Part shown: positions 13,133 to 29,696 of the stretch, piece after piece
Layout of the letters: every line of letters begins with the position of its first letter
How positions within the stretch are numbered: the first letter of the stretch is position 1
DNA from: a bacterium
GTDB taxonomy: Bacteria; Zhuqueibacterota; Zhuqueibacteria; Oceanimicrobiales; Oceanimicrobiaceae
Length of the DNA stretch: 46,227 bases
Assembly: GCA_046757165.1 (NCBI GenBank)
Contig: JBHHXT010000019.1
Location: forward strand, 1 to 46,227
Direction of reading: 5' to 3'
The notes under the pieces: generated by a model
The model's database searches: none
Told to the model about the DNA's origin: nothing
What the model saw: the letters and a program-made list of their open reading frames with translations, nothing else
Program-made: the position numbers and the translations under genes

Positions 13133-13267
13133 TTTTTCCTCCTACCTTGCAAAACCGGGGATCCACAACCCGGAAGTCATTGATTATTCATCTAAAAGAC
13201 ACGATTCAATTCTAAGGGCATTGACATCTTTATAACCGCACTTTCGCACGAATTATTTCACACCGTT

Positions 13268-13489
13268 TTATTTTCGTCTTTTTGAATTCAGCCAGAAGGC
13301 GATGAACGCGACAACGCTGAAAGGAAGGAGAGAGAGGAATGCAGCGCTAAGATAGTAGGTATTCAGCACTTTTGTGACAGAGGAGCCAAAACAACTGGGA
13401 CACCCCTGAACACTTTCAGAAGTCAGCAACAAGAAAGACAAAACGTAGATGGCGCTCAAACTTCTGACGAAGCGCTTCAAAACGGACAC
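13268..13489 (-). CDS. Small membrane protein with CPxC motif, last gene of the oxidase operon
   Basis: GTG start with GAGG RBS; signal/TM segment, CPSCFG, second TM, basic tail. Confidence 0.65.
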   Translation of the reverse strand: MSVLKRFVRSLSAIYVLSFLLLTSESVQGCPSCFGSSVTKVLNTYYLSAAFLSLLPFSVVAFIAFWLNSKRRK

Positions 13490-13506
13490 CGTATCAACCT
13501 CATGAG

Positions 13507-14220
13507 TTAGCTCAAATAAACCAGGACAAACAACACTGGCCAGATGGCGACGACAAAGTACCAGTACAAACCACAGAGTTCAGCCAGCGTGTCGCTGCGG
13601 GTGGAATAGGTCCTGGCTAAAGATTTCTTCAGGACGATGAGCAGGAACACCATCGCACCCGCCACATGCAGGCCATGACATCCGATCAGGGCATAAAATA
13701 TTCCGCCATAGGTGCTGGAGGTCAAAGTCAAACCGAACCGGATCAGGCGAACCCATTCGGAGCCTTGAATCAAGAGAAACGTGGCCCCTAAGCCGGCGGT
13801 CGCAATCAACCATTTGGTCATGGTCATGGACAGGTCTGCCCGGCTGGCCCGCATCGCTCGATTCATCGTGAAACCGCTGGCAAGCAGAAAAACCGTATTG
13901 ACCAGGGTCACCACGAGGGGAAGCATGGGTTGACCCGCAGGGGGCCATGTTTGGCTGTTGGCCCGCAGGATGAGAAAAACGCTGATCAGCCCGCCAAAAA
14001 ACATCACTTCCGCGCCGATGAACATGAGCAGCCCCAGAACCCCCTTGTTGACCGGCGCTTGCTGTACCGAAGCGAAACCGGGGTCTGCCGCGCCCTTCAA
14101 ACCATCGCTCTCGAGGCCGGAACTATGGCCATCATTTATCTCGGGCGTTGTCATTCTGGTCGCCATCGCTGCTGCCAATATTTGGGTTGATGTGTTTTCA
14201 TGTTTAGCGATTGTAGACAA
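13507..14220 (-). CDS. ctaE: Heme-copper oxidase subunit III (second paralog)
   Basis: GLLMFIGAEVMFFGGL, NTVFLLASG, FYALIGCHGLHV, LYWYFVVAIW. Confidence 0.88.
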   Translation of the reverse strand: MSTIAKHENTSTQILAAAMATRMTTPEINDGHSSGLESDGLKGAADPGFASVQQAPVNKGVLGLLMFIGAEVMFFGGLISVFLILRANSQTWPPAGQPMLPLVVTLVNTVFLLASGFTMNRAMRASRADLSMTMTKWLIATAGLGATFLLIQGSEWVRLIRFGLTLTSSTYGGIFYALIGCHGLHVAGAMVFLLIVLKKSLARTYSTRSDTLAELCGLYWYFVVAIWPVLFVLVYLS

Positions 14221-14485
14221 TATCTGGTATGAGCGAAATGGTCATCCCGATGAAGAGCAAGACCGGAATGATGGCAATGTAACGAATCAGTCGCTGCTCG
14301 AATTTTAGATGCATGAAATAGACGGCCACCAGTCCCGCTTTGACGGCAGCGACGAAAAAAATAAATGCCACTGTCAGTGGCGGTGAAAATGGCAAAAGAA
14401 CCGCTCCGACGCTGACAAACAGCAAAAGAAGCAGCCACGCCCAGACAGCGACATAGTTCGGATGCTCATGTTGAGTGTGTGACAT
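14204..14485 (-). CDS. ctaF: Cytochrome c oxidase subunit IV (CtaF/CyoD-like)
   Basis: Three TM helices; KAGLVAVYFMHLKFE signature. Confidence 0.85.
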   Translation of the reverse strand: MSHTQHEHPNYVAVWAWLLLLLFVSVGAVLLPFSPPLTVAFIFFVAAVKAGLVAVYFMHLKFEQRLIRYIAIIPVLLFIGMTISLIPDIVYNR

Positions 14486-14594
14486 ATTCTAACTCCTTTC
14501 GGGTAAACTTCGGCAGTTGGCTGTTGGCCTCGAGCTTGCTGATAAGGTTATTTGTCATCTCTTATTTTTTGTTCAACTGCTCAACAGCGGCCCC

Positions 14595-15185
14595 TCAATA
14601 CGAAAGATAAAGCAACGGAAACAGGAAAATCCAAACGACGTCAACGAAATGCCAGTACAGCCCTGCGTATTCCACCCGCTGCTGCGTTCTCGGCCAGAGC
14701 GTGCCTCTGACGGCCATAACGAAGAGCGCAAAGTTTGCGATAATGCCTGCCAGGACATGCAGGCCATGCAGCCCGGTCAAGGCGTAATAAAAGGCCCAAA
14801 ACATGCCGGACAGCGGCGTGAATCCCTGAGAGATTTCTATCGAGTATTCAACCGCTTTGACGCCCAGGAATGTCACTCCGAGTAAGACCGTGAACAAAAG
14901 GTAGGTCCGGGCCGACTTCCTATCTTCTTCGTCAATCGCCTGAAAGGCTTTTACCATGGTCAAGCTGCTGGTGAGCAGAATGACGGTATTGAAGGTGCCA
15001 ATTGCTGTGCTAACATGCTGAGCCATGTCAGCCCACGTGCCGGCACTGGCCATGCGGTAGAGAATATAGATCGCCAGGAAGCCGCCAAATACCATGATTT
15101 CAGAGGCTAAGAACCACCAGAGCGCGATTTTGCCTGACGGCGCTTGAGTTTGCGGATATTCCTCAACGGCGGAAACGGTGCCCAT
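14595..15185 (-). CDS. ctaE: Heme-copper oxidase subunit III (first paralog)
   Basis: WWFLASEIMVFGG, NTVILLTSS, TGLHGLHV, GLYWHFVDVVW. Confidence 0.92.
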   Translation of the reverse strand: MGTVSAVEEYPQTQAPSGKIALWWFLASEIMVFGGFLAIYILYRMASAGTWADMAQHVSTAIGTFNTVILLTSSLTMVKAFQAIDEEDRKSARTYLLFTVLLGVTFLGVKAVEYSIEISQGFTPLSGMFWAFYYALTGLHGLHVLAGIIANFALFVMAVRGTLWPRTQQRVEYAGLYWHFVDVVWIFLFPLLYLSY

Positions 15186-15243
15186 TCTGCTATCTCCCTT
15201 GTCTTAACATTAACGGTTCGGGTTTATTCTTCTTCAAGCTATG

Positions 15244-15322
15244 TCTGGTTCCAACGCTCTGCGTCCCTTTACTTGACGCGGAGCGTCAAATACTGGTTCC
15301 CACGCGGAGCGTGGGAACCAGA
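15244..15322. repeat. REP-like palindrome cluster between oxidase subunits I and III
   Basis: CTGGTTCCCACGC-GGA-GCGTGGGAACCAG (15293-15321), TTGACGC-GGA-GCGTCAA (15273-15289) and a partial copy at 15244. Confidence 0.7.
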
Positions 15323-15368
15323 CCGTGTAGGTGCGTGATCATCATACACCAAATCCTGCACCGAAGGA

Positions 15369-17102
15369 CTAGGCCGCGGCCGCGGTTTTCTTCGGTTCAT
15401 TCTGCGGCTGCCAATCCCGGCCATTGCCAGGCGAACTGTACTCGTACGGGCCATGATAAACCCTGGGCAGGGTAGCAAAATTGCCATGAGGGGGCGGCGA
15501 AGGCGCAGCAGCCCACTCCAGCGTGTTCGCCTGCCAGGGATTATCCTCCGCTCGTTTCCCTTTGAACAGGCTCCAGAAGAAATTGATCACAAAGGGAATC
15601 TGCCCGATGAAAAGCAGAATCGCGGCGATGGTGATGAGCTGATTGATCGGGCCAAAGGGCTTGAGAAAGTCATATTGCAACGGGTTGTAAATACGGCGCA
15701 TGTGGCCACCCATGCCCAGCACGAACATCGGGATAAACGTCAGGTTGAAAAAGATGATCGTAAACCAAAAATGGATTTTCCCGAGCCCCTCGTTCATCAT
15801 GCGGCCAAACATTTTCGGGAACCAGAAGTAGAGCCCGGCGAAGCCAGCCAGAAGGGCTGACGGAAAAAGGGTAAAATGAAAGTGAGCGACGACAAAATAA
15901 GTATCGTGAATGTAGATATCCACCGGCGCCGAGCCATTGAATATGCCTGTCACCCCACCGACGATGAACGTCAGAATCGTGCCGAGCGCAAAGAGCATCG
16001 GTGTGGGAAAACGCAGTGAACCGCCCCATAGCGTTGCCATGAAAGCAAAGATTACGATGGCAAATGGAACCGAGATCAGGATGGTGGTAATGCTGAAGGG
16101 CATCACCAACCGTGGGTCTATGCCGCTGACGAACATGTGATGCGCCCAGACCACGAAGCTGAGAACCCCGGCCACCAGGACTGAGTAGATAATGGTTTTG
16201 TACCCGAAAATCGGCTTGCGAGCAAATACTGGCAAGATTTCGAACAAAGCGCCCAGGCCGGGCAACAGGATCACATAAACCTCCGGATGCCCAAAAAACC
16301 AAAACAGATGCTGCCACAACAACGGGTCCCCGCCTCGATCAGCGATGAAGAACCCGGTGCCAACTGTACGGTCCAGCAGGAGCAAAATCGCCCCCGCGAT
16401 AAGCGGGCCGACGGACAGCATAAAAAGAACCGATGCAGTGATCTGCATCCAGACCATCAGGGGCAACCGGTACATCGTGAGGCCGGGGGCCCGCATGGTG
16501 ATGGTGGTAGTGAGGAAATTGATGCCGCCCATCAGGAAGGAGGTAAATTCCAACGCCAGTCCCAGTATCCAGAGATTCAGGCCCCAATTCACTCCCGTGA
16601 GCACGGGGTCTGCTGATAAGGGTGCGTAGCCCGTCCAACCAGCGGCCGCCGCACCCCCCGGGACGAAAAAGGAGGCGATCATCAACACCGAGCCGAGAAA
16701 GATAGTCCAGAAAGACATCATGTTTAGCCTCGGAAAGGCCATATCCGGTGCGCCAACCATCAACGGCAGCAGAAAGTTACCGAAGGCGCCCAGCAACAAT
16801 GGCATGGCGACGAAAAACACCATCAGGGTACCGTGCATCGTCACCAGTGCGTCATAGAATTCCGGCGGAATGATGCCGTTGACCACCGTCGGTTCCGGAA
16901 TCCAACCGGCACCGGGGACCGCAGTTTCAGGCCACGCGAGCTGCCAGCGCATGTAGTAGGCCAGCAGACCGCCAACGACAGCCATAAACAGGCCGAGAAA
17001 CATGTACTGCTTGGCAATGACTTTGTGGTCGATCGAAAAAATGTACGTGCGAAAAAAACTCAGCTCCTTGTGCTCAGCCGCGTGACGGACCTCGTCAGCC
17101 AT
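15369..17102 (-). CDS. ctaD: Heme-copper oxidase subunit I, A1 type, with atypical K-channel
   Basis: TMHG, PDMAFPRLN, WFFGHPEVY, WAHHM, AHFH and MRR: all six His ligands and the active-site Tyr are present. Confidence 0.96.
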   Translation of the reverse strand: MADEVRHAAEHKELSFFRTYIFSIDHKVIAKQYMFLGLFMAVVGGLLAYYMRWQLAWPETAVPGAGWIPEPTVVNGIIPPEFYDALVTMHGTLMVFFVAMPLLLGAFGNFLLPLMVGAPDMAFPRLNMMSFWTIFLGSVLMIASFFVPGGAAAAGWTGYAPLSADPVLTGVNWGLNLWILGLALEFTSFLMGGINFLTTTITMRAPGLTMYRLPLMVWMQITASVLFMLSVGPLIAGAILLLLDRTVGTGFFIADRGGDPLLWQHLFWFFGHPEVYVILLPGLGALFEILPVFARKPIFGYKTIIYSVLVAGVLSFVVWAHHMFVSGIDPRLVMPFSITTILISVPFAIVIFAFMATLWGGSLRFPTPMLFALGTILTFIVGGVTGIFNGSAPVDIYIHDTYFVVAHFHFTLFPSALLAGFAGLYFWFPKMFGRMMNEGLGKIHFWFTIIFFNLTFIPMFVLGMGGHMRRIYNPLQYDFLKPFGPINQLITIAAILLFIGQIPFVINFFWSLFKGKRAEDNPWQANTLEWAAAPSPPPHGNFATLPRVYHGPYEYSSPGNGRDWQPQNEPKKTAAAA

Positions 17103-17116
17103 ACTCTCCTCCTCAT

Positions 17117-17800
17117 TTAGTTGTCATTATCTGCAGGTTGCCAGTTCTCCTGCACCCAACTGGCGTAGGCTTGCTCAGAATGAACATAAAGAAAGCCGCG
17201 CATGGTGTAATGGCCATATCCACACAACTCGGCGCAAGCGATCTCATACTTGTCGGTTTCGGTCGCCTGGAACCAGGCTTCGATTTCACGGCCAGGCACC
17301 AGGTCCTGCTTCAGGCGCAGAACCGGGACAAAAAAACTGTGGATAACATCCTGGGAAGTGAGAATAAGCTTCACCACTTTGTTGGCCGGCACGTGAAGGT
17401 CGTTCTCCAGCGTGAGATCGTCGTCGCTACCAAACATGCCGTCCGGCCCGGGGTAGGTCATGATCCAGTTGAACTGCTTGCCCTCCACTTGAATGGTCAC
17501 CGCGCTGACTGGCATGTCCCCTTTGATTTGGTCATAGGCTTTCGCGCCGGCAAAATCAATCCACAGGTCGAACACGAGCACGATGGCAGCTGGAATCAAG
17601 ATCCAGCCCGTTTGTGGCCACGCCCTGCCGTGCACAAATTTCGCCCGCTGCCCCTCTCGACGACGGTACCGAAACAGAAAATAGAAAATCAATCCCTCGC
17701 CTAGCAGAAATCCGATTCCGACGATCCAGAAGATCAGATAGAACACCGAGTCAATCTCACCGCCAAAGGTCGAGATGTTCTGCGGGAACAAATCAAACAT
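17117..17800 (-). CDS. ctaC: Cytochrome c oxidase subunit II (CuA), no fused cytochrome c
   Basis: Two TM helices; DVIHSF and CAELCGYGHYTM CuA motif. Confidence 0.95.
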   Translation of the reverse strand: MFDLFPQNISTFGGEIDSVFYLIFWIVGIGFLLGEGLIFYFLFRYRRREGQRAKFVHGRAWPQTGWILIPAAIVLVFDLWIDFAGAKAYDQIKGDMPVSAVTIQVEGKQFNWIMTYPGPDGMFGSDDDLTLENDLHVPANKVVKLILTSQDVIHSFFVPVLRLKQDLVPGREIEAWFQATETDKYEIACAELCGYGHYTMRGFLYVHSEQAYASWVQENWQPADNDN

Positions 17801-18103
17801 GGTCTCACACCTCCAGGTTTATTCGTATCTTGCTCGAGCCAATGCACCAAACGCGATTCCGCCCCTGGCGATTATATTACATCTTCAATGCAAACAAATA
17901 CTTGCTTTATAGAAAGTCGATGGGACGATCTTGGCTCCTAAAGTGGCAAACCGTGTCAAAGGAACCAGATGGACAAATTCGGACTGCGTTATCTGCTTTA
18001 AATGGTGAATAAGATAAGCGAATTGCGGATGAATGTCAAGTATTTTTTGACGATAATGTCATCTTATAGTCACATGAAGCTTGATGGCCACCCTGCAAAC
18101 GGC

Positions 18104-19285
18104 CTATTGGGCCTCATGACAGTAGCCGCAGAACCCTGCGCCCGCCTGGCGTGTGTTGGTATGACAGGAGTAGCACAGGGCATTGTCATCATCATGCAGA
18201 GACGCGTCATCCCCGATCTGGTCTGCGAAGCCCGTCTCGTGGGTTTTGGGGTTGGTCCCCTGCACGCCGTCAAAATCGGTGTGGCAGAGTAAACAGGTGG
18301 GATCATCCCCCTCGGTGCTATGGCAGGCCGCGCAATTTTCAATGTCTCGCCTGGCGAGCTCAGCATGGCGGCCGCCGCCGGTGCCGACGACCCCTGCAAG
18401 TGCCCCCCAATCGGGCCCGCCATGCCAGACAGGTTTGCCCGCCACGTCCACGCCTTCGGCTTCGTGGCACGTCTGGCAAAAATTCTGAGTTTCGTGACAG
18501 ACGGCACACTCCTGCGACCGGCCCTGCGCTTCAAGAGGATGAGTGAGTCTAAAATTGAGATCGTGCACGCGGGAGATAAGCAGACCCTTTGTGCCCCCGC
18601 CAAGCGAGGGGAACATCGGTGTTTGTGTATCGAGCACGGGCGCCGAGGCCGTCATGAACAAAGACGCCCCCTGATGACACTCTGCGCAATCGTTTCGCGT
18701 GTGACAAACGCTGCACGCCTCCTGATCGATACGGGCCAGATTTTTGTGTGTCACAAGATAATCCGAGCTATGGTCAACCGGCCTGAGGGTGAGGGTATTG
18801 GTGTGGCAGTTCACGCACTCGAGTGTCGCCTGCTGGTTGTTGTGACACCTGGCGCAGTCTGGCATCTGTGCCTTACTGTGATCGTCAGCGTAGTCTACCC
18901 TGTCCAAATTCTTGTGGCAGGTTTCGCAGGCCACTTTCTGCTCGAGAACATGAAATTCATGGTTGAACAGAAGCGTGTTTTCGACAGCGGGCAGCGGCTG
19001 CCGGGTCTCCTCGTCCTCGAAATGGCAGAGCGTGCACGCTTCTTCATCCTCGACCTCATGGCATCCCTGACACTCTTCCTTTGCAGGCAGCAAATTATCG
19101 CTGGCCAGCGTGCTCTGCTCAGCACGGGTATGACAATCCGCACAAGCTGTCTCTACCTCCTTCTGGTGAAACTTGTGCGAAAATTTGATCACTTCTTTTG
19201 ATTGCTTCAGCGGACTTTGGGATAAAACGTGCCAGCTAAGTGCCAATGTGATGGTTATCACTCCCAACCAGAACTTGTTCAGCAT
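18104..19285 (-). CDS. Periplasmic 14-heme cytochrome c (c3/c7-like repeats)
   Basis: Signal peptide; 14 CxxCH counted; FSHKFH and FNHEFH distal-His motifs. Confidence 0.9.
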   Translation of the reverse strand: MLNKFWLGVITITLALSWHVLSQSPLKQSKEVIKFSHKFHQKEVETACADCHTRAEQSTLASDNLLPAKEECQGCHEVEDEEACTLCHFEDEETRQPLPAVENTLLFNHEFHVLEQKVACETCHKNLDRVDYADDHSKAQMPDCARCHNNQQATLECVNCHTNTLTLRPVDHSSDYLVTHKNLARIDQEACSVCHTRNDCAECHQGASLFMTASAPVLDTQTPMFPSLGGGTKGLLISRVHDLNFRLTHPLEAQGRSQECAVCHETQNFCQTCHEAEGVDVAGKPVWHGGPDWGALAGVVGTGGGRHAELARRDIENCAACHSTEGDDPTCLLCHTDFDGVQGTNPKTHETGFADQIGDDASLHDDDNALCYSCHTNTRQAGAGFCGYCHEAQ

Positions 19286-19345
19286 AATCCCTCACCGGTT
19301 TGCCTCAGATTCGTTTTCTTCCTCATCATGTCCCTGCTCGACAGC

Positions 19346-20614
19346 TTATAAGCTGCGCTTGAAAAACCAATAGCTTGCTTTGACAAAGATTCGAAAATCG
19401 CTGCTCGAGAACCGATTGCGGATGCCCTGGCCGAGGATGTCGATGGCAAGCTGCTTGCGCGGACGGTAGTTGAGACCGACACTCCCGGTCAGGGAGGTGT
19501 GGGTCTCGAGGTCGTCATCGAACAGCGTGTAACGAGCCAGCCCGGTCGTGGCTACCAGTCCCAGTTTCGGTGTCACGGGATAATTCAAGGCGGCGTATGC
19601 GCCGTTGTTTTGGCCGCCATACCCTTTTCTGAAATTGTAGCCGAGCGAGCCGTACTTTCCTCTAACGCCCAAACCAAAACGAACCGTTTCGTCGCCGTCA
19701 TATTTTTGAACGGCGAGATTTCCGTTCAGGAACCAGCGCTGGCCGAACCGGTAACTGCCGCGCACGCCGAACTCCTGTGTGGTGTTTTGCTCAAACACCG
19801 TGAAGATGGAATTTGCTTCGATGAGTGGTGCACGGTGGATAAATTCACCACTCAATGTCAGTTTATCAGAAGCTGCCAGCCGGAGTTCAACCTGCCCGCG
19901 GCGAACACGCTCTTGCTCGAGGTCATAATCGAGCCGGCCATAGAGGTTCAACTTGCGCGCGAAACGCCGGTGGAGGTCCAGGCCAAGCAGCCGTTGCTCC
20001 AAACTCTCGAAGGTGATTTTTCTGCCGGTATACCGACCGGGCGCTGAGTAAGCAGCAGGCGCCCGGTTTCTTTGCATGAAACTAACCAGGACCTTCGTAC
20101 CGGCCAGCTTCGTGGTACTCACCCGGAAGCCGAACGCATGTCGGTCATCCCAGTTGCCGATTTCGATTTCATTCGAAAACGGCACCAGGATGCCTGCGAA
20201 GCCTCCTATCTTGACACTCTCTCCGATGCGGAAGTTGAGATCGATGCCGTCAACGGTGCCGTATGCAACGCCAGAATAGACCCGCTGCCGACCCAGGCGA
20301 ACACGCTGGACCAGGCCCTTGCGTGCGTGCCACTGAAGGTAAGTGTGATAGATTCGCGGAATGGGATCGTCCTCCGCGGACTTTGCCAAATCTTGTGACA
20401 GCAGGCCATAAAAGTGAAAAGACACGCGCCTGGAAGCAAGATTCCCAATGGTGACCTGTGCTGTTTGGTACACCCGTGCGTGCGTCTCGGAAAGCGAGTC
20501 TGCCGGGTTTCTCTCCCAGGAGTAGACCGTGGTGGAGAAGCGACCACTCACCGACTGCCCATAGACCTGCGTGGTCAGAGCTAACGCGAGCAAAATGTAG
20601 ATCAATCTCTTCAA
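19346..20614 (-). CDS. Outer-membrane beta-barrel (porin of a porin-cytochrome complex)
   Basis: Signal peptide; amphipathic strands throughout; RVRLGRQ..VDG motif; terminal strand RIFVKASYWF; flanked by two multiheme cytochrome genes. Confidence 0.8.
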   Translation of the reverse strand: MKRLIYILLALALTTQVYGQSVSGRFSTTVYSWERNPADSLSETHARVYQTAQVTIGNLASRRVSFHFYGLLSQDLAKSAEDDPIPRIYHTYLQWHARKGLVQRVRLGRQRVYSGVAYGTVDGIDLNFRIGESVKIGGFAGILVPFSNEIEIGNWDDRHAFGFRVSTTKLAGTKVLVSFMQRNRAPAAYSAPGRYTGRKITFESLEQRLLGLDLHRRFARKLNLYGRLDYDLEQERVRRGQVELRLAASDKLTLSGEFIHRAPLIEANSIFTVFEQNTTQEFGVRGSYRFGQRWFLNGNLAVQKYDGDETVRFGLGVRGKYGSLGYNFRKGYGGQNNGAYAALNYPVTPKLGLVATTGLARYTLFDDDLETHTSLTGSVGLNYRPRKQLAIDILGQGIRNRFSSSDFRIFVKASYWFFKRSL

Positions 20615-20671
20615 GACCCTGGTCCCCTTTCTTATGTGTGAAGTGCGTCGTACGTCCGACTCACCTTATTT

Positions 20672-20826
20672 CTTGCGCCTCCTGGCTGCAAAGGGAGGCG
20701 CAAGGTCGTCAAGGAGGTAGATAATGAATTGAGCAGCATTGAGCTTCACTCGTCATTTGTTGTCACTTGCCTTGCGGGCGTCATTGAGCAGGCAAGGACC
20801 AAATGACGCCCGCAGGGCAAATGACG
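20672..20826. repeat. Two strong intergenic hairpins
   Basis: 11-bp perfect stem 20672-20682/20694-20704; 19-bp stem with one mismatch 20767-20785/20802-20820. Confidence 0.65.
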
Positions 20827-20901
20827 GCGCGAAGCGCTAAATGACTTTTTTCGCAGCAAAGTCTGCAAAAAAACCCAGGCTCTCTCTGGTCAGGACGCCC
20901 G

Positions 20902-21771
20902 TCAAAACATGGGGAATTCCTGACCAAAAACATTGACCAACCCGTTTGCGTGTTTGCTTTTGTCACTGATGTTTCCTTGTGAATCCATCACCAGGTTGTG
21001 ACAATTGACACAGGCGGTCAGCTCAAACGGGTTGTGCCCGGTGGGTGGCAAGTCATGGCACGTGCCACAGGTGACCGTTTCAGGGTTGGTCCACTCCGGT
21101 GAGGCCTGATTGCCTACGATGGAGTCAGCCGAGTAAATAAAGGCAAAGCTTGACTGTTCCTTTGCTAAACTCCAATTGCCATGACAGTAGACATTTTCAC
21201 AGGACAAGCTATTATCGTTCCACCGTGGCTCTGCCTCGTCGAGCAGCGCATTTTTGCTGAACACCACCTCAGCGGGTAATGGTGAATCGATGTGCTCGGG
21301 AGCGTCAAACGTCCCCGGAACGACGTGACAAGTCGAACAGTCGAAGCCATTGCTGAAAGATGCGCCAGAGAGATGAGGTGTATGGGCCCCCACGCCTCGG
21401 ACACCGCTGCTGAAGTTGTCTGCCAGATCTGTTGGGGGAGCGCCGGTTTGATTGTCGACACCGCCATGGCAGACCGTGCAATCCTCCGGCGTAGACGGAT
21501 GACAGGTCAAGCATGAACGATTAGCGATCCCCCCGCTGTAATCGACACCGTGACACTGCTGACAGTTTGCCAGATCCCATCCTGAGCTTTGCAAGAATAC
21601 GCCGTGAAATTCCGGTGCGCCATCGCTTATCCAGTCCCGGGGGTGAACGGACAGTTCTGGTTCCAGATTAGCCGGGACGGGTTCTCTCAGTTCGCTGCAT
21701 CGGTTGAGAAAAAGAGCCAGAAAGAACCATGGGAAAATGAGCCGCAAATCCATTCTGATGTGCATGGTCAT
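20902..21771 (-). CDS. Multiheme cytochrome c, probable lipoprotein, CxxxxCH/CxxCH (Geobacter-type) domain
   Basis: Six CxxCH plus CENVYCH; hydrophobic stretch ending FLNR-C. Start uncertain (21810, 21771 or 21753). Confidence 0.85.
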   Translation of the reverse strand: MTMHIRMDLRLIFPWFFLALFLNRCSELREPVPANLEPELSVHPRDWISDGAPEFHGVFLQSSGWDLANCQQCHGVDYSGGIANRSCLTCHPSTPEDCTVCHGGVDNQTGAPPTDLADNFSSGVRGVGAHTPHLSGASFSNGFDCSTCHVVPGTFDAPEHIDSPLPAEVVFSKNALLDEAEPRWNDNSLSCENVYCHGNWSLAKEQSSFAFIYSADSIVGNQASPEWTNPETVTCGTCHDLPPTGHNPFELTACVNCHNLVMDSQGNISDKSKHANGLVNVFGQEFPMF

Positions 21772-21899
21772 TCTATAAGTTATGTTCGAGTCACATTCCT
21801 GGCGCAACAAAGTCGCTCAGGCATCTTCTTGCAAGAAATCAAAAAGCAATAACATAGCAGCAATGTACAAGCGTTTCACCTCGATGTTCGGCATTCAAA

Positions 21900-22376
21900 T
21901 CACGGCTCTTTGTCCTTTAGATTTTCGCGAATGACATCGATCAACATCCTTTGAAGGGCGACGAAACGTTCAGCAATGATTTCAGAAATATTCCTCATCA
22001 GGATGTGGCCAAGATGACTGGCTGATGCGGACAATCGCTTGACGTCACTCGCTTTGAACTTCAACAATTCTGAATCTTGCATGGCTACCGCTGCGAGCGT
22101 ATAGACGTAGGGCTCGGTCAGAGCGGACCACCCAAAAGCATCGCTCTTGAACTTTCGCTCCAGCGTAACCTCTTTCGAAACATGATAATAAGTTACCTTG
22201 AACCGCAGTTCTATCGCGCCACGGCTCACGATGTACAAATGCTCGGCAGAACTTTCAGCCTCAAAGATACGATCTCCCTGATTGACAGAAATCCTCTCAC
22301 AGATCCCGGAAAAATCTTCCAGCTCCTTATCTGAGAATTCAGCAAATACACCCGTCTCTCTAAGTAAGTCGATCAT
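21900..22376 (-). CDS. Stand-alone cyclic-nucleotide-binding (Crp-like sensor) domain protein
   Basis: GDRIFEAES.AEHLYIVSRGAIEL...FGWSAL...AVAMQDSELL; no HTH domain follows. Confidence 0.85.
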   Translation of the reverse strand: MIDLLRETGVFAEFSDKELEDFSGICERISVNQGDRIFEAESSAEHLYIVSRGAIELRFKVTYYHVSKEVTLERKFKSDAFGWSALTEPYVYTLAAVAMQDSELLKFKASDVKRLSASASHLGHILMRNISEIIAERFVALQRMLIDVIRENLKDKEP

Positions 22377-22393
22377 TTCTCATCCCCTGGGGT

Positions 22394-22984: not shown

Positions 22985-23005
22985 GATCGACCTCCGAATT
23001 GATTG

Positions 23006-24268: not shown

Positions 24269-24497
24269 GTTTCTCGCCTCTTTGCAGTCCGACGAACACA
24301 TAAGTCAGGATGGCTGCCAGGGTAAAAAAAACCGGGATGGCGACGATGCTGATGCCAACAGAAGCGTTGAGCGCATCGTTGAGTCTGTGCGCCACACGAA
24401 TCAGGTTGAAAATCCAAACAGCCACGCTCGAGACAAAAACCCAGATCAAGGACACAGAGGCAAGTTGGAGAAAATAAATTGTGTTTGACCGTTTCAT
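24222..24497 (-). CDS. Small 2-TM membrane protein, possible accessory subunit
   Basis: ATGA overlap with the NrfD-family stop; two hydrophobic helices. Confidence 0.65.
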   Translation of the reverse strand: MKRSNTIYFLQLASVSLIWVFVSSVAVWIFNLIRVAHRLNDALNASVGISIVAIPVFFTLAAILTYVFVGLQRGEKHDHFGAGKNEIHPEE

Positions 24498-25861
24498 TGC
24501 TCCACTCCTGCTCGTTTGCTCGCGGACTCCGGCAAAGGCTGCTCAGGCAAATACGATTGCAACCGGCTGGCAACTTCTCGCACACTGTGTTGCCGGCCTT
24601 CCTGAATTTCCCAAATTGAAACCAACGGAAAGTACTTGGAGAATAAAACATAGCCCAGAACAAACACCGCAAGGCCCCAGGCAAAGAGACTCCACTCGGT
24701 GAGCGAGGGGATGTACATTCCGGTCGGATAGGGTAATCTTGGATTCGCCAGAGACGGCACGACAATGATGAGGCGCTCCAGCCACATGCCGATCACAACG
24801 GCAATCGAGGCCACCAGAATCCCCGGAATCTTCTGTGTTTTCGGGTTGGCGAGAATGGTTATCGGAACCACGAAATTGCAAAAGATCATCAGCCAGAAAA
24901 ACGGCGACATCTTTCCGACGAACTTGTAGAGGAACACTCTCATCTCGTTAGGCTCGTGCCCGTAATATCCCGTCAGATATTCAGAGAAAGTAAAATAGCC
25001 CCACAACATCGACATGATCAGCAGCAGCAGCCCCAAATACTTGAAATGAATCTCTTTCAGGTAGGGCTCCAGCTTGAATGCCTTGCGAAACGCAATCATG
25101 GCAATCAACAAGGCCGCGATACCGGAGAAAATGGCGCCGACCACAAAATAGGGACCGAAAATCGTGCTGTGCCAACCGGGCTGAATGGTCATAGAAAAGA
25201 TGAACGAAATGACTGTGTGAACAGAAACGGCAATCGGAATCACCATGACCATCAGGATGTTGATGGCTCTTTCGAGCACTTTCTTCTGGTGTTCCGTGCC
25301 CTGCCAGCCCCAGGCCAGGAATTCGTACAGCCAGCGGGGCCGCGTGCCGCGATCCCGCAGGATGGCGATATCCGGAATCATGGGAAGATACAAATAGACC
25401 GTACTGGCGCCAAAATAAGCGGTGATACTGGTCACATCCCAGAGCAGGGGGGACTGCAGCCGCCCATCGGTGAAAAGATGCATCATGCGGTCAGGCCGGC
25501 CCAGATCGAGGATGGGATGCAGGCCTCCGATCGCCAAAACGATGGCCGTGATGACCTCTGCCATCCGGGTGATCGGACGCCGCCATTCCGCTTTCGAGAG
25601 TCTCAGAATCGCCGAAATCAGGGTTCCAGCATGGCTGATACCAATGAAGAAGACGAAGTTGATAATATAAAACCCCCAGGAGACGGGCTGATTGAGCCCG
25701 GTGACGCCGAGGCCAAGCACAACTTGCCTGATGTAAGTATAGACAGAGAAAGCGATGATGGCTAACAGGACACAAACCGTGATGTAAAACCCCTTGCCCG
25801 TGTGCTCGATGGGACGTATCAGCACTTCATCTTCGAATGAATCCTTGCGCAGTTCAGACAT
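24494..25861 (-). CDS. nrfD: NrfD/PsrC-family quinone-interacting membrane subunit (ActC/QrcD-like)
   Basis: WGFYIINFVFFIGISHAGTLISAIL, WRRPITRMAE, DLGRP, SPLLWD, SVHT, GMWLER. Confidence 0.92.
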   Translation of the reverse strand: MSELRKDSFEDEVLIRPIEHTGKGFYITVCVLLAIIAFSVYTYIRQVVLGLGVTGLNQPVSWGFYIINFVFFIGISHAGTLISAILRLSKAEWRRPITRMAEVITAIVLAIGGLHPILDLGRPDRMMHLFTDGRLQSPLLWDVTSITAYFGASTVYLYLPMIPDIAILRDRGTRPRWLYEFLAWGWQGTEHQKKVLERAINILMVMVIPIAVSVHTVISFIFSMTIQPGWHSTIFGPYFVVGAIFSGIAALLIAMIAFRKAFKLEPYLKEIHFKYLGLLLLIMSMLWGYFTFSEYLTGYYGHEPNEMRVFLYKFVGKMSPFFWLMIFCNFVVPITILANPKTQKIPGILVASIAVVIGMWLERLIIVVPSLANPRLPYPTGMYIPSLTEWSLFAWGLAVFVLGYVLFSKYFPLVSIWEIQEGRQHSVREVASRLQSYLPEQPLPESASKRAGVEQ

Positions 25862-26545
25862 TTATTCCACCTCTGACAGATAAAAAACTTTCGGTTCGGT
25901 GCCCAAATCTTCCAGCAATTGAAAGGCGCGCGGGTTTCTCCTGAGCTTGCTGACCTGGCTTTTGGGATCGTCGAGATCGCCAAAGTAAATCGCTCCGGTC
26001 GGGCAGCTTTCCATACAGGCCGGGATGTAATCTCCCTCTCGCAGCTCGCGGCCTTCAACAGCAGCCTGCTCTTTGGCTATCTGCAACCGGTGAATACAAA
26101 AGGTACATTTTTCCACCACGCCGGCCGGGCGCAGCGACACATCCGGATTGCAGGCCGCTCGCATTTCCTCCGGCCATTCGGGTCGGCTCCAGTTAAATGA
26201 TTTCACCGTGTAGGGACAGGCGACCTGGCAGTATCGACAGCCGATGCATTGCGGAAAAATCTGCGTGACGAGGCCCTCATCATTGAGATAGGTCGCACGA
26301 ACCGGACACACTTTGGTACACGGCGGGTTATCACATTGAAAACAGGGCCGAGGCATGTAGCGGACTTTCACATCAGGAAATTCCCCCTCGTAAGTCGTGA
26401 GGATATCCATCCAAAGCATGGTGCGCCCGCGGTCCGATTCATCCGGCCCGACGATGGCGACGTTGTTTTCGATCTTGCAGGCCGCGACACATTCCCCGCA
26501 GCCGGTGCACTTGTTCAAATCGATGACCATACCCCATCTTGGCAT
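25862..26545 (-). CDS. 4x[4Fe-4S] ferredoxin subunit (NrfC/PsrB/QrcC-like)
   Basis: Start MPRWGMVIDL at 26545; CTGCGECVAAC, CFQCDNPPCTKVCP, CIGCRYCQVACP, CTFC...CMESCP. Confidence 0.93.
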   Translation of the reverse strand: MPRWGMVIDLNKCTGCGECVAACKIENNVAIVGPDESDRGRTMLWMDILTTYEGEFPDVKVRYMPRPCFQCDNPPCTKVCPVRATYLNDEGLVTQIFPQCIGCRYCQVACPYTVKSFNWSRPEWPEEMRAACNPDVSLRPAGVVEKCTFCIHRLQIAKEQAAVEGRELREGDYIPACMESCPTGAIYFGDLDDPKSQVSKLRRNPRAFQLLEDLGTEPKVFYLSEVE

Positions 26546-26546
26546 A

Positions 26547-29030
26547 CTAGGCTCTCTCCTTTCCGGTGACTTTTTCGATCGCAATCTTCGTACTGATCAG
26601 CGAAGGAGCGCCACGCAAGTAATCATAGTCCTCCACAACAATCTCATAGGGATTGACACCGATGCCTCTGGCATATCGCCCATAAGCTGAATGACCCAGC
26701 CCGAAAGGAATATAGGCGACCTCAGGCATGACCCCGGGGAGTATCTTTGCCTGGACCAGTAGACTGCCTTCCGAAGAAGTCACTTTGACCATGTCACCGT
26801 CGTGAATCCCATAGCTGTGGGCGGTTTCCGGATTGAGCTCAATCCAGGACTGCCAGTACTCGCGCGTGAGCAATCCAAACAATTCTTGCACCAAAGGCAG
26901 GTTGCTCCCCATGCCATTGACGTTGGTAATCAAATGATAGGTGAGCAAATGCAGATCAAATCGCGCGCCATTTTTTGAGGCCGCAGGGGGTTCATAGTGC
27001 GGCAGGTAGACAAGATCGCCACGCGCATCTATTTGCCAGCGCTGCAACAGCGAATCAAGGGCGCTCTCGAACCCATCCGACTGCCGGATTTTCGATTCGA
27101 TCTCGTGTTTCAAAACCTGCGAATAGAATTCAAACCTCCTGGAAGGTGTCGCAAAGACCTTGTCAAAGTCCGGCTCCTGCGGAAAGGGATCGAGCCATCC
27201 CCCTTTTTCAAGCAGAACCTCCCAGAACTCTTCAAAGCCGGTATAGTCAAACAACTGCCACCCCCGTTCTTTCAGGAATGTCAGCCAGGCCTCGTCCATA
27301 CGCTCGGTGAAAACGGTGCCTGCGCCGGTCTTGTATACGCCCTCTAAGCGCGTTTGGAGATACGCTTTGTAGTCCGGCCAGGGCAACGCAGAGGCCAGCG
27401 TCCCGCCCAGACGCTTGGCCATGCCCAGTATAGAGTCTCCCAGGTGACGGCTGTCGTACAAAGGCTCGATCACCGGTTGTTGCATGCCAAAATGGGAGAA
27501 CTCCACCAGGGGAATATTATCGATGACGTCAAACTTCTCCAGGAAGGTATGGTCGGGCAGAATCAGGTCCGCGTACAGGGTGGTCTCATCCACAAAGGGC
27601 GAAAAGCTTACGATGAACGGAATGTTGTGTAGCGCCTCAACCACGCCACCCTGATTGGTAGAATGAAACACTGGATTAGCCTCTGCCAGAAGCAGAACAT
27701 CCACAGGCACCTGCTGTTTTTCGGAGATGAACTTCGGTAGATTGACCGGTGTCTCGCCCGAAAAACAGAATCGATCATCCAGCTCGGTGAGCCCGGGTCT
27801 GGCCAGACCCGACCGCGCTACTTTGTCCGGCTCGAGTTTCGACAATTCTGCAAACGGCGGGGGCTTCTGCAGAGAGATAGGCTTTCCATTCGCGAAATTG
27901 CCTTTCAGGGCATTCAAACACTCGACAGCCCAGGCCGTGTAAAGGCCCTTGTTGCTGCTGTGGGCCTGTCCGCCGGACAAAGCCAGAGCAGAGCCCTCAG
28001 CGCCAAACTCCCTGGCCAGCTCAACGATTCTCTCTGCCGAAACGGATGTTATTTCGGCCACCTTCTCCGGATAATACTCTTGCGTGACCAGAGACTTGAA
28101 CCCCCGGTATGAATTCCCGGCATCATCCTGCCAGTCATAAAACCCAAAGCACCTGTCTTGCACGAAGTTCTTGTCGTACCGGCCATCCTTGATCAGGACG
28201 CTCGCGATGCCCAGAGCTAAAGCCGCCATGGTCCCGGGTTTGATGGCAACCCATTTATCAGAAATGCCGGCAGTGCGCGAAAGACGAGAGTCGATGTGGA
28301 CAATCTTTGTCCGCTGTCCATTTTCGCGATTTCTGAGCTCGGAATAGAGTTGATTGAAGCGAACCGGGGATGGGCCAACATCCAGCACATCCGCCCCAAA
28401 GTTGATCAACAGCCTGATGGTTTTGAAATTGTAACTGAGAGGCTTCTTATGACCTTGTGTGATATAGGTTGCCAGGGCTGAGATGTCCCCGGATTCAGAA
28501 ACAAATAAATTCGGCGACCCGAACCCGGACATGAATCTCGAGAGCAAGTCGGAGAGCAGGGTGTTCACATGACCGGACCAAAATGCGAGCTTGTGTGTTT
28601 CATCTTTCTGCTGTAGCGCCTGCAACCGGGAGACAACCATCTGCATGGCCTCCTCCCAGGAGATGCTCTGCCACTGTCCCTCGCCACGACTGCCAACGCG
28701 TTTCAGCGGTGCTTTGATGCGGTCCGGATTGAATAACGCTTCGATGCCGGCTTCGGCCATCGGACAGATGCTGCCCCGGTTCACCGGATGAATTGGATTG
28801 CCCAGAATCCGCACTGGAATCCCGTCGATGAGACGGACCTTGATCCCGCAGCCGCCCGGACAAAGTGTGCAGACACTGGTTTTCCAGGTTTCAAGGCGGG
28901 GGGCGCCTCCAACTTTTTCGTACAGCTCATCCGGCACCGACCATATCGAATCGCAGCCCAGTCCTGCCATCGCAGCGCCGGCAGTGGTGAGGCCGAGGTA
29001 TTGCAAGAACTCTCTACGAGTGATCTCCAT
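26547..29030 (-). CDS. Tat-exported molybdopterin-oxidoreductase-family subunit (QrcB/ActB1/PsrA-like)
   Basis: TRREFL Tat motif; CX2CX3CX27C FS0 motif; PDRIKAPLKR; ADLILPDHTFLE; C-terminal ELNPETA..GIHDGD domain. Confidence 0.9.
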   Translation of the reverse strand: MEITRREFLQYLGLTTAGAAMAGLGCDSIWSVPDELYEKVGGAPRLETWKTSVCTLCPGGCGIKVRLIDGIPVRILGNPIHPVNRGSICPMAEAGIEALFNPDRIKAPLKRVGSRGEGQWQSISWEEAMQMVVSRLQALQQKDETHKLAFWSGHVNTLLSDLLSRFMSGFGSPNLFVSESGDISALATYITQGHKKPLSYNFKTIRLLINFGADVLDVGPSPVRFNQLYSELRNRENGQRTKIVHIDSRLSRTAGISDKWVAIKPGTMAALALGIASVLIKDGRYDKNFVQDRCFGFYDWQDDAGNSYRGFKSLVTQEYYPEKVAEITSVSAERIVELAREFGAEGSALALSGGQAHSSNKGLYTAWAVECLNALKGNFANGKPISLQKPPPFAELSKLEPDKVARSGLARPGLTELDDRFCFSGETPVNLPKFISEKQQVPVDVLLLAEANPVFHSTNQGGVVEALHNIPFIVSFSPFVDETTLYADLILPDHTFLEKFDVIDNIPLVEFSHFGMQQPVIEPLYDSRHLGDSILGMAKRLGGTLASALPWPDYKAYLQTRLEGVYKTGAGTVFTERMDEAWLTFLKERGWQLFDYTGFEEFWEVLLEKGGWLDPFPQEPDFDKVFATPSRRFEFYSQVLKHEIESKIRQSDGFESALDSLLQRWQIDARGDLVYLPHYEPPAASKNGARFDLHLLTYHLITNVNGMGSNLPLVQELFGLLTREYWQSWIELNPETAHSYGIHDGDMVKVTSSEGSLLVQAKILPGVMPEVAYIPFGLGHSAYGRYARGIGVNPYEIVVEDYDYLRGAPSLISTKIAIEKVTGKERA

Positions 29031-29090
29031 ACAATCGCTCCTGAATCTGGCTCTTATTCGTCATGGTCTAATCCACCACCTGTCCTCAAG

Positions 29091-29585
29091 TCAACGGTGA
29101 CACGCATAACAATCATTGGAAACCTCGCGCGTTTCATGACAATCCATGCACCATGCCATCGTTATTTCCTGAACGGGTGCGCCCACCGGCGTTGTCAGGG
29201 TTCCGACGTCGCCATGGCAGACCGTACACTCCAACTCGCCAAGCCTGACGTGCCGGCGATGAGAGAAGTAGGCGTAGTCCGCCACGCGATAGATTTGCCG
29301 CCAGGGGATTTTCGTCTTTTCGGTAACAAATTGAAGTAACGCCAGTTCTGCCTCGCTTTCGGTCATGGCTTCCTCATGGCACTCGGCGCAAAGATCGATA
29401 TTCGGGATAGAAGCCCGTGGATTCTCTTCGGCGTATTGATGGCAGTCCAGGCACTCCATGTCATTCTCTTCTACATGTATGCTGTGGCTGTAGGCAATGG
29501 GCTGCTTCGTGTCCTGCCTTTTGAGGAACCCGGCTACCATGAATGTCAACACAACGGCGAGAACAATGGATAGGGTCTTTTTCAT
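29091..29585 (-). CDS. Membrane-anchored pentaheme cytochrome c (ActA/QrcA-like)
   Basis: N-terminal TM; QPIAYSHSIH; five CxxCH; FSHRRH; TMAWCMDCH; NDCYACH. Confidence 0.92.
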   Translation of the reverse strand: MKKTLSIVLAVVLTFMVAGFLKRQDTKQPIAYSHSIHVEENDMECLDCHQYAEENPRASIPNIDLCAECHEEAMTESEAELALLQFVTEKTKIPWRQIYRVADYAYFSHRRHVRLGELECTVCHGDVGTLTTPVGAPVQEITMAWCMDCHETREVSNDCYACHR

Positions 29586-29696
29586 GTCTCAACGGTCCGT
29601 AACGTAGGTTGTTAGGCTGTTAGCCTACAGTCTGTCTACCTGAATAATGTGCAAGAGACCGAAGACGAGCCTCGATCTCTTGCGTCGTGGCGGCCC

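Follow-up and report, generated by a model that had tools for sequence, protein, structure and literature searches.

The genes for a lipoprotein cytochrome, a β-barrel and a 14-heme cytochrome in the window, by which we mean the whole analysed stretch of 46,227 nucleotides, form a triad that, judged from its sequences, belongs to the porin-cytochrome (Pcc) family of the Ignavibacterium album type. The initial annotation regarded the triad as a non-Mtr, Pcc-like and distinct trans-outer-membrane conduit. The former part of this claim was supported, as no MtrB or MtrA family match was found, the barrel is predicted with 22 strands and no plug, and the barrel and the 14-heme gene are linked. The latter part did not hold: the triad is not a new conduit but the counterpart of the I. 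album Pcc cluster published in 2014. The features of the window are as follows.

13507..17800, minus strand: A-type heme-copper oxidase operon (coxB, coxA, coxC, subunit IV, second coxC), context
18011..18039, minus strand: promoter-like site TTGACA-17-TATCTT before coxB, between the 14-heme stop and coxB
18104..19285, minus strand: 14-heme cytochrome c with signal peptide and c7-like N-terminal half, counterpart of IALB_1838
19346..20614, minus strand: predicted 22-strand outer-membrane β-barrel without plug, counterpart of IALB_1839
20739..20873, no strand: palindromic intergenic repeat, genome-wide, between lipoprotein and barrel, outside the system
20902..21771, minus strand: 7-heme lipoprotein cytochrome, counterpart of IALB_1837, likely the surface-facing subunit
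21900-22376, minus strand: cNMP-binding protein, belongs to the Qrc-like module
22394-22984, minus strand: c554-like cytochrome, belongs to the Qrc-like module
23006-24301, minus strand: tetraheme cytochrome of four class I domains, belongs to the Qrc-like module
24494..29585, minus strand: Qrc/ACIII-like module (pentaheme, molybdopterin-family subunit, 4Fe-4S protein, NrfD), context

The gene content proposed initially, a 7-heme lipoprotein with a CX4CH, a 422-aa barrel and a 14-heme cytochrome directly upstream of the oxidase, was borne out. On the minus strand the order is lipoprotein, barrel, 14-heme cytochrome and, as the next gene, coxB; the lipoprotein and barrel genes are 287 bp apart and the 14-heme gene lies 60 bp downstream of the barrel. 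The 21 heme motifs of the triad (14 + 7) are kept across dozens of homologs, well above chance expectation. The repeat between lipoprotein and barrel is 135 bp long and has 42 copies of at least 100 bp on 39 contigs; the stretch bearing it shows a folding z of -6.39, and the repeat stands out as a depth peak of about 30-fold in four runs. A contig of run X4 spans coxB to the end of the 14-heme gene, and no listed contig spans the lipoprotein-barrel repeat. Misassembly of this join is disfavoured by read depth, which is even across 13000-30000 except for two repeat peaks, and by gene order: the join is probably right because relatives (L032, L069, L071, L074, L078) share the order lipoprotein, barrel, 14-heme. 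No RNA runs containing the window DNA were found in the run listing.

The barrel is read from a TTG start and contains no Cys and no heme motif. For the strand count, a check proposed with the initial annotation, we used an AlphaFold2 model (pLDDT 90.4), in which 22 strands are predicted, the first of them following directly on the signal peptide, at residue 21; in the model the lumen is empty and the plug domain, a trait of TonB-dependent transporters, is absent. Pcc porins are reported to have 18-22 strands (PMC4245776). The best structural matches are 22-strand TonB-dependent transporters (Z 19.6, rmsd 3.6, 357 aligned), and these alignments span only the barrel part of those transporters. 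MtrB (6r2q_B) is matched with Z 16.4 and rmsd 4.5 over 340 aligned residues, a generic fold likeness, and Foldseek likewise returned generic barrels only, with TonB-dependent transporters, ushers and AlgE among the structural matches. OmbB or Ext porins are not among the listed structural matches, though the barrel may still be kin to them. A PDB sequence search with the barrel found no relative, the match to PF13505 falls narrowly below threshold (28.3 against a cut-off of 28.7), and neither Pfam nor NCBIfam (87 members searched) nor the Atlas gives the barrel a family name; its Atlas look-alikes are unnamed clusters, mainly of Ignavibacteriota and Bacteroidota. The barrel is single copy in the window genome. 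A single-protein barrel scan of the genome contigs gave 43 stretches, none confirmed, and the barrel alignment holds no stretch conserved enough to scan with. The missing N-terminal plug domain speaks against a TonB-dependent transporter. The barrel also differs from Cyc2 fused cytochrome-porins, whose hallmark is an N-terminal CxxCH with a PXFAR motif on the barrel chain (10.1101/228056), in having no Cys.

The 14-heme protein has 393 aa, 14 CxxCH motifs and a hydrophobic N-terminal helix with no lipobox Cys, and we infer that it is periplasmic. In homologs, 13 of its 14 CxxCH cysteine pairs show no or almost no variation. The family also keeps 12 invariant non-motif His and Met141 (80/87), which would provide 13 of the 14 distal ligands, in the manner of a closed-heme wire. 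The best solved sequence match of the family profile is PDB 3ov0 (E 4.9e-30, profile positions 35-173), a tandem c7-type multiheme cytochrome that we take to be Geobacter GSU1996; it covers only the N-terminal half, and no solved structure is clearly related to the C-terminal half. The AlphaFold2 model is poor (mean pLDDT 54.1, residues 150-285 under 50) and unfit for a fold search. The mature protein carries a net charge of -31 and the mature barrel one of +20, and the cytochrome likely fills the barrel.

The lipoprotein, whose start ATG at 21771 is real (additional ATGs lie at 21765 and 21753), carries six CxxCH motifs and one CENVYCH (CX4CH), the latter present in 82 of 92 homologs; typical motifs range from 4 to 24 per homolog. 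It passes TIGR01904 (47.1 bits, cut-off 27) and PF09698, and a PDB sequence search found no relative. Its lipobox is atypical (FLNR-C), with the Cys invariant in 16/16 aligned homologs, followed by Ser/Ala at +2 in 91/92 and Asp/Glu at +3 in 67/92. The N-terminal sequence C-SELRE departs from K-(D/E)2, the minimal Bacteroidetes export signal, and resembles S-D-D types only loosely, a comparison with no control set. The protein is likely exposed at the cell surface.

The family ranges over KSB1, Calditrichota, Ignavibacteria, Kryptonia and others: the 14-heme profile has at least 562 matches among one-per-species genomes, and the barrel was found in 41 of 61 relatives. We compared 111 homologous loci, which are kin chosen by similarity, so that counts from them are not independent. 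Wherever both genes are visible (103/103 loci), the barrel is followed by a 12-14-heme gene, with a gap of at most 300 bp in 96. A Spearman coefficient of 0.77 between barrel and 14-heme pairwise identities (87 rows) was dropped as co-evolution evidence because kin share both genes. In the published I. album cluster, IALB_1839 is the porin, IALB_1838 has 400 aa and 14 hemes, IALB_1837 has six typical heme motifs plus atypical ones, and IALB_1840 is a periplasmic cytochrome (PMC4245776; PMC4282303). The match to this cluster is by proxy, through loci of the L103 genus (the L103 record is labelled uncultured Ignavibacterium sp.) with the published sizes and heme counts instead of the IALB sequences themselves. 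In this genus 33 of 34 genomes have the 14-heme homolog, all 20 fetched loci show the order c554, barrel, 14-heme, lipoprotein, and in four loci (L172, L174, L176, L179) the 14-heme protein is exactly 400 aa long and the lipoprotein has a 6+1 set of motifs. Loci with the published sizes hold full-length homologs of all three window proteins at 28-38% identity. The 14-heme protein is 38% identical to its 400-aa counterparts in L172, L174 and L176 (E 3e-91 for L174), the barrel is 29% identical to L174:5021-6286 (429 columns, E 3e-50) and the lipoprotein 34% identical to L174:7500-8426 (312 columns, E 4e-50). L114, labelled I. album yet at 54.5% GC against 31-35% in the L103 genus, was not relied on as a proxy. 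The window c554 was rejected as the IALB_1840 counterpart: it is of the Qrc-module type, and a better match lies unlinked on contig C22.

We infer a physical complex of the triad as well as its flow direction and substrate, and we hold, with moderate confidence, that it works as an I. album-type Pcc. The 14-heme cytochrome would thread the predicted 22-strand barrel, the lipoprotein would cap it on the cell surface, and electrons would flow out of the cell, from the quinone pool to an external acceptor, likely partner cells, sulfur, or minerals of Fe(III) or Mn(IV). For I. album itself, however, an inability to reduce oxides of Fe(III) or Mn(IV) has been reported (PMC4245776). Among the conduit loci, 37/111 have an ImcH-like and 24/111 a CbcL-like neighbour, with either in 55/111 and, among loci of at least 19 kb, in 41/65. 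In Geobacter, ImcH is needed to reduce high-potential extracellular acceptors (PMC4251993). Such usual neighbours, ImcH- or CbcL-like quinol oxidases that would be the inner-membrane feeder in most relatives, point to outward electron flow. In the window genome (G000, assembly 99.98% complete), ImcH- and CbcL-like genes were not found by tblastn, so the Qrc-like module would act as feeder, through its pentaheme subunit and c554-type carriers, and is the likely quinone-pool partner of the conduit. The best NCBIfam matches of this module are QrcA, QrcB and QrcC, every one below cut-off. In four Ignavibacteria-type loci (L089, L096, L098, L184) the conduit is immediately preceded by a Qrc-type NrfD (71-75% identity). 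The link is sporadic: of 13 genomes of the relatives set having both, four carry them within 30 kb on one contig, and of 10 additional genomes in a class sample, one has them side by side.

The adjacent oxidase raises the alternative that the conduit runs inward: electrons taken from partner cells, Fe(II), Mn(II) or sulfide minerals would reach the oxidase CuA by way of the 14-heme or tetraheme protein, with the uphill branch run by the Qrc-like module. Conduit and oxidase directly adjoin, across a join bridged by the X4 contig. CoxB (17117-17800) has a CuA motif and no CxxCH, in agreement with the earlier statement that subunit II lacks a fused cytochrome c, and the outward feeders named above were not found. 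Mtr-type conduits are bidirectional (PMC4245776), one study of hydrothermal vent metagenomes accounts for all four runs containing the DNA, and the bacterium respires oxygen, so that with three A-type oxidase operons and three Cyc2-like proteins inward electron uptake is within the genome's repertoire. Those Cyc2-like proteins are, however, simpler candidates for iron oxidation, and the two carbon-fixation markers searched for, RuBisCO and CdhC, were not found in the genome. CoxA lies near the conduit in only 2/111 loci. The order of the window recurs in L021, and in L041 the oxidase lies about 5 kb upstream. The L021 barrel is the nearest relative and sister of the window barrel (quick tree, SH-aLRT 94), so the two are likely one event. 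In 8 of 10 other genomes having both, barrel and the same oxidase type are on different contigs, and of 21 conduit genomes tested, six, including four that are 96-100% complete, have no PF00115 match above cut-off. The promoter-like site before coxB matches the consensus at 10/12 positions, in a scan that overall did no better than shuffles (12 found, 12.8 expected); its spacing is equal in L021 and in the unlinked L158 and unmatched in L157, L159 and L160. This site, present with or without a conduit, suggests separate transcription of the oxidase. We give inward flow little credence, and the adjacency, rare among relatives, is probably incidental. An equally unlikely reading is that in this vent bacterium a Pcc was rewired to run inward, losing ImcH/CbcL and gaining the Qrc-like module upstream and the oxidase downstream, and so couples the oxidation of extracellular minerals or partner cells to oxygen. 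Of the oxidase donors initially suggested, the 14-heme protein is weakly supported at best, given this rarity, the promoter-like site and a second oxidase (contig C227) with neither a fused cytochrome c nor a conduit alongside; the tetraheme is still a plausible CuA donor, although it travels with the Qrc-like module and not with conduit or oxidase. Under outward flow, the oxidase, which lacks the K-channel lysine, would most likely be a branch of the same respiratory island with transcription of its own, supplied under oxygen by the tetraheme or other soluble cytochromes.

The role of the lipoprotein and of the barrel itself could also be read differently. Barrel and 14-heme protein alone might span the membrane, with the lipoprotein a periplasm-facing accessory or part of another pathway. 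A lipoprotein homolog was found in 94/111 loci, the 17 others including some cut by contig ends; its gene switches position (upstream in 16 loci, downstream in 77), its motif number varies widely, the repeat separates it from the barrel in the window, and two-gene pcc clusters with 12-14-heme cytochromes have been described (PMC4245776). Against this, it directly follows the 14-heme gene in all 20 L103-genus loci, its N-terminal Cys, Ser at +2 and acidic +3 are conserved, and atypical CXnCH motifs are reported in Pcc outer-membrane cytochromes, not in periplasmic ones (PMC4245776), which makes a two-component conduit unlikely. That the barrel passes solutes or exports surface cytochromes instead of serving as an electron conduit, and stands by chance among cytochrome genes, seems very improbable. 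Its generic structural matches and lack of a family name would fit such a role, as would multiheme proteins with a type IX secretion-type tail near 35/111 loci; yet it has no plug, pairs with one specific soluble cytochrome across several phyla, is opposite to that cytochrome in net charge, and shares its architecture with the tested OmbB/OmaB/OmcB complex (PMC4282303).

The triad type is already known as a genome prediction; what is new here is its range, the map of interchangeable inner-membrane partners (ImcH-like, CbcL-like and Qrc-like) and a cultured holder, Stygiobacter electus (L133), suited to testing. As neither Pfam nor NCBIfam models the barrel, routine annotation misses it; if the family does work as a conduit, KSB1, Calditrichota, Ignavibacteria and Kryptonia would be a large under-counted electroactive pool. 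Pcc conduits were stated as not found in oxidisers (PMC4245776), a view that would be overturned if the window copy ran inward to the oxidase; such rewiring, in a family spread across hundreds of genomes and several FCB-group phyla, would make it the first electron-uptake conduit of the Pcc family as well as the first wire leading from Qrc to a porin. In the literature searched we found no biochemical study of the I. album-type subfamily and no Pcc cluster reported beside a heme-copper oxidase or a Qrc-like module, though the Melioribacter/Stygiobacter literature may contain either; the terms PCC, porin-cytochrome, Ignavibacter and OmbB are absent from a 2026 review of iron-oxidation proteins (PMC13741234).

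Among known systems, the I. album cluster IALB_1837-1840 (Liu 2014, PMC4282303; Shi 2014, PMC4245776), itself known from genome prediction only, shares with the window a small porin, a periplasmic 14-heme cytochrome of about 400 aa and an outer-membrane cytochrome with six typical motifs plus atypical motifs. The window shows these traits of Pcc clusters as described in the two studies: a barrel predicted within the range of 18-22 strands, an adjacent 5-14-heme cytochrome, probably periplasmic, a lipoprotein cytochrome of the kind that often has atypical motifs and, by proxy, homology to a listed member. In contrast to I. album, the lipoprotein gene lies upstream instead of downstream, the conduit-type c554 is unlinked, the triad is flanked by a Qrc-like module and an oxidase operon, and the AlphaFold2 model gives the barrel 22 strands against 18 predicted by HMM for IALB_1839. 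The Geobacter sulfurreducens OmbB/OmaB/OmcB complex has been tested in proteoliposomes (PMC4282303); it shares with the window triad a three-part plan, a similar strand number (OmbB 20 predicted) and about 20 hemes (21 in the window), split 8+12 in Geobacter and 14+7 in the window. OmbB, compared here through IALB_1839, is only 19% identical to it; by published values IALB_1839 is 12-14% identical to Gsu_2644 and Gsu_2726. Function is thus carried over by architecture. In Shewanella MtrCAB, MtoAB and PioAB, a barrel and multiheme cytochromes likewise form a trans-outer-membrane wire. However, PF11854 (MtrB/PioB) matched neither the window barrel, the 87 members nor the genome, TIGR03508 (DmsE/MtrA) did not match the 14-heme protein at E 0.01, the barrel has 422 aa against 649 modelled residues in MtrB, and the cytochrome has 14 hemes against 10, with a c7-like N-terminal half. 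The Qrc-like module shares the pentaheme, molybdopterin-family, 4Fe-4S and NrfD-type membrane subunits with QrcABCD and alternative complex III; it differs in having no ActD/E/F in the operon and in carrying the four-domain class I tetraheme, and modules of this type adjoin a Pcc conduit in some genomes.

The window is contig C19 of a 6.09-Mb assembly (genome G000, 99.98% complete), and its minus strand carries the following genes, listed in order of transcription.

Upstream of the triad, minus strand: triple EB_dh protein, pentaheme cytochrome, molybdopterin-family subunit, 4Fe-4S protein, NrfD, tetraheme cytochrome, c554-like cytochrome, cNMP-binding protein
24494-29585, minus strand: Qrc-like module within this upstream stretch
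23006-24301, minus strand: tetraheme cytochrome
20902-21771, minus strand: lipoprotein cytochrome
19346-20614, minus strand: barrel
18104-19285, minus strand: 14-heme cytochrome
13507-17800, minus strand: oxidase operon, coxB (17117-17800), coxA, coxC, subunit IV, second coxC

The triad genes are as the initial annotation had described them, with seven heme motifs in the lipoprotein, a 422-aa barrel and a 14-heme cytochrome. The lipoprotein combines six CxxCH motifs with one CX4CH, passed TIGR01904, and has an N-terminal Cys that is invariant in 16/16 aligned homologs. The barrel, which contains zero Cys, was modeled with AlphaFold2 from an alignment with 60 homologs (pLDDT 90.4), and the strand count proposed as a check gave 22 predicted strands, the first at residue 21, with no plug. 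Against this model, a structural search of 48,161 solved chains ranked TonB-dependent transporter barrels first (Z 19.6, rmsd 3.6, 357 aligned) and gave MtrB Z 16.4; both matches are generic. In the 393-aa 14-heme protein, ten non-motif His are kept in all 87 rows of the paired homologs, two further ones in all 75 rows reaching them, and Met141 in 80 of the 87. These residues would supply 13 of the 14 distal ligands, an arrangement that would fit an electron wire better than an enzyme. The N-terminal half of the protein is similar to tandem c7 domains (3ov0, E 4.9e-30). The net charges of the mature barrel and 14-heme cytochrome are +20 and -31 (family medians +7 and -10), and these opposite charges are only suggestive. 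Lipoprotein homologs have S/A at +2 (91/92) and D/E at +3 (67/92), loosely resembling the S-D-D surface-export signals reported for Bacteroides and Flavobacterium, and C-SELRE in the window fails the minimal K-(D/E)2 rule (PMC5080379). A 135-bp intergenic palindrome repeat at 20739-20873 has 42 copies on 39 contigs of G000, and a second, different multicopy intergenic repeat, detected as a depth peak, lies between coxA and coxC at about 15254-15321. The window DNA occurs in four runs, all vent metagenomes of one study, two of which are possibly its source.

The barrel was found in 41/61 relatives and, at E 0.001, gave 1613 matches among representatives clustered at 50% identity, and the 14-heme profile confirmed at least 562 of 599 pattern matches in a one-per-species collection. 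The best 80 of these at least 562 bear the titles KSB1, Calditrichota, Ignavibacteria, Melioribacteraceae, Kryptonia, Latescibacterota and others; cluster members added Marinimicrobia and Handelsmanbacteria. Gene neighborhoods were compared in 111 loci, comprising one for each of 40 other barrel-holding relatives and the best 80 14-heme loci, minus nine duplicates (L062, L063, L065-L068, L072, L075, L076); these loci are kin chosen by similarity, and their counts are not independent. The barrel and a 12-14-heme gene are each present in 107/111, all eight misses falling at contig ends, and where both are visible (103 loci) the barrel always comes first, with a gap within 300 bp in 96. The lipoprotein is present in 94/111 loci, upstream in 16 and downstream in 77 of the 93 with scorable order. 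A shorter subtype in L044-L053 pairs a barrel of about 400 aa with a cytochrome of about 290 aa that has 11-12 hemes and is missing the last two, and eight of its barrels make up a separate branch of the tree. In some relatives the lipoprotein is expanded by repeats to 18-24 CxxCH and up to 10 CX4CH, and in others it is reduced to 4 hemes (L024:12897-15821, L038:6050-8218, L071:3692, L139:11180).

The linkage between conduit and oxidase is weak. CoxA lies near the conduit in 2/111 loci (also 2/65 loci of at least 19 kb), in the window's order in L021 and with the oxidase upstream in L041. Since the L021 barrel is the nearest relative of the window barrel (66%) and pairs with it as sister in a quick tree (SH-aLRT 94), L021 and the window likely represent one event. 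The window oxidase type occurs at 75% identity or more in twelve other relatives, ten of which hold the barrel, on the same contig only in G004 and G055; in L157-L160 the region ahead of coxB, over 4.6 kb or more, has no 14-heme gene. In the window, a TTGACA-17-TATCTT promoter-like site falls in the gap between the end of the 14-heme gene and coxB; the pattern recurs ahead of coxB in L021 and in the unlinked L158, and is unmatched there in L157, L159 and L160. In 21 genomes that hold the barrel but no close CoxA, PF00115 was above cut-off in 15 and not in six (G024, G029, G031, G036, G043 and G060, 85-100% complete). The window CoxA (15369-17102, minus strand) reads SVPFAIVIF, and two G000 paralogs read AVPSAIKTF and AIPSAIKVF; the Lys of the paralogs, which we take to be the K-channel Lys, is Val in the window CoxA. 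A fatty acid hydroxylase gene (12512-13132, minus strand) follows the oxidase operon, likewise in L021 and L157.

The initial annotation had named the 14-heme or the tetraheme protein as possible oxidase donors. Its premise holds, as CoxB carries a CuA motif without any heme motif, and a second G000 oxidase (contig C227) is also without a fused cytochrome c; the weak conduit-oxidase link counts against the 14-heme protein as donor. The tetraheme belongs to the Qrc-like module, because it follows the Qrc-type NrfD in 12/12 fetched relatives (12 of 14 holders), and by inference it is better suited than the 14-heme protein to feed CuA. The module lies 5 kb upstream of the conduit in G000. Qrc-type NrfD occurs in 15/61 relatives, 13 of which also hold the barrel, within 30 kb on the same contig in 4/13 (G000, G002, G012, G021); this NrfD directly precedes the conduit in L089, L096, L098 and L184. 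In a class sample around G064, this NrfD was present in 11/151 genomes and adjoined the conduit in 1/10 beyond the centre. The linkage is recurrent but sporadic. The operon itself (window 21900-29585, minus strand; L141-L154 and L181-L190) conserves the pentaheme, molybdopterin-family subunit, 4Fe-4S protein and NrfD, the last at 69-86% identity across phyla, and includes a tetraheme of four class I domains, in many cases together with c554 (three CxxCH and CX3CH) and the cNMP-binding protein. It is below every Qrc cut-off and misses ActD/E/F of alternative complex III, and may represent a so far undescribed quinol:cytochrome c oxidoreductase. A counterpart of the conduit-associated c554 stands alone on contig C22 of G000 (L198, 35086-35652); a 422-aa gene upstream of it has a signal-like N-terminus.

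Overall, the best explanation is probably that the conduit runs outward and the oxidase is a separate aerobic branch. Electrons would pass from quinol to the Qrc-like complex, through a c554-type carrier to the 14-heme cytochrome inside the barrel, and on to the putatively surface-exposed lipoprotein and an extracellular acceptor. For the family, outward flow is favoured mainly because of its neighbours: an ImcH-like protein (NrfH/NapC-like, about 500 aa long, with a membrane part at the N-terminus and 6+1 motifs) in 37/111 loci and a CbcL-like protein (multiheme with formate dehydrogenase gamma-type cytochrome b) in 24/111, one or the other in 55/111. These names were assigned by architecture; Geobacter ImcH works in reduction of high-potential extracellular acceptors (PMC4251993). 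Four ImcH-/CbcL-like queries had no match in G000 (tblastn, E 1e-6). Against the outward reading, I. album is reported to be incapable of Fe(III) or Mn(IV) oxide reduction (PMC4245776). In 35/111 loci the conduit has nearby multiheme cytochromes whose C-terminal tail is of the type IX secretion type (TIGR04183), with 7-9 typical motifs in those scanned (L062:6602-8554, L069:203-2809, L069:3677-6679 and others); they are candidates for secreted or surface cytochromes. Elsewhere in the window (33585-36356, minus strand), a 923-aa protein combines nine repeats of DUF5666 with a tail of the FlgD/type IX type.

Inward flow through the conduit to the adjacent oxidase is unlikely. The G000 organism may take up outside electrons, because the genome encodes three operons for A-type oxidases, two loci resembling alternative complex III and three Cyc2-like fused cytochrome-porins of 389-423 aa (L196:587-1858, L196:10665-11915 and L197:8917-10086, contigs C45 and C137); however, the Cyc2-like proteins would be a simpler route than the conduit. 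Each is one residue off the published filter PXFAR[Q/K][T/Y] (10.1101/228056), and RuBisCO and CdhC were not found in G000. A two-component conduit seems similarly improbable, and we give a non-conducting pore still less credence.

On family matches, the window triad failed the Mtr membership tests, so that the claim of a non-Mtr triad stands. A published counterpart exists in the I. album Pcc cluster catalogued by Shi et al. 2014, with 18-22 predicted strands in Pcc porins, IALB_1837 as an outer-membrane cytochrome with atypical motifs, IALB_1838 of 400 aa with 14 hemes and IALB_1840 as a periplasmic cytochrome (PMC4245776); in Liu et al. 2014, a supplementary entry reads IALB_1839(18), IALB_1838(14), IALB_1837(6) (PMC4282303). 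The 14-heme homolog occurs in 33/34 genomes of the genus to which L103 belongs (record title uncultured Ignavibacterium sp.), and all 20 loci fetched of the 33 have the order c554, barrel, 14-heme, lipoprotein. L172, L174, L176 and L179 carry a 400-aa, 14-heme protein and a 6+1 lipoprotein, and the window proteins match L174 at 29% (barrel, E 3e-50), 34% (lipoprotein, E 4e-50) and 38% (14-heme, E 3e-91). The set is also present in the cultured Stygiobacter electus (L133), with identities of 24, 41 and 42%. A record titled Ignavibacterium album (L114) has a locus GC of 54.5% and a barrel grouping away from the L103 genus, and its label looks doubtful. Clusters of this kind have since been reported from Ignavibacteria in metagenome studies (PMC7399161, PMC6137239), KSB1 genomes are mentioned in general terms as having iron reductase and iron oxidase genes (PMC10732223), and our literature search found no experimental test of the I. 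album-type subfamily. The triad very probably belongs to the I. album-type Pcc family, as compared through the L103-genus loci, which are close proxies and not the IALB sequences themselves. The initial idea of a distinct conduit is not supported, since loci with the published sizes and heme counts hold full-length homologs of all three window proteins; the triad is a new member of a known, genome-predicted kind of conduit, with unusual gene neighbours.
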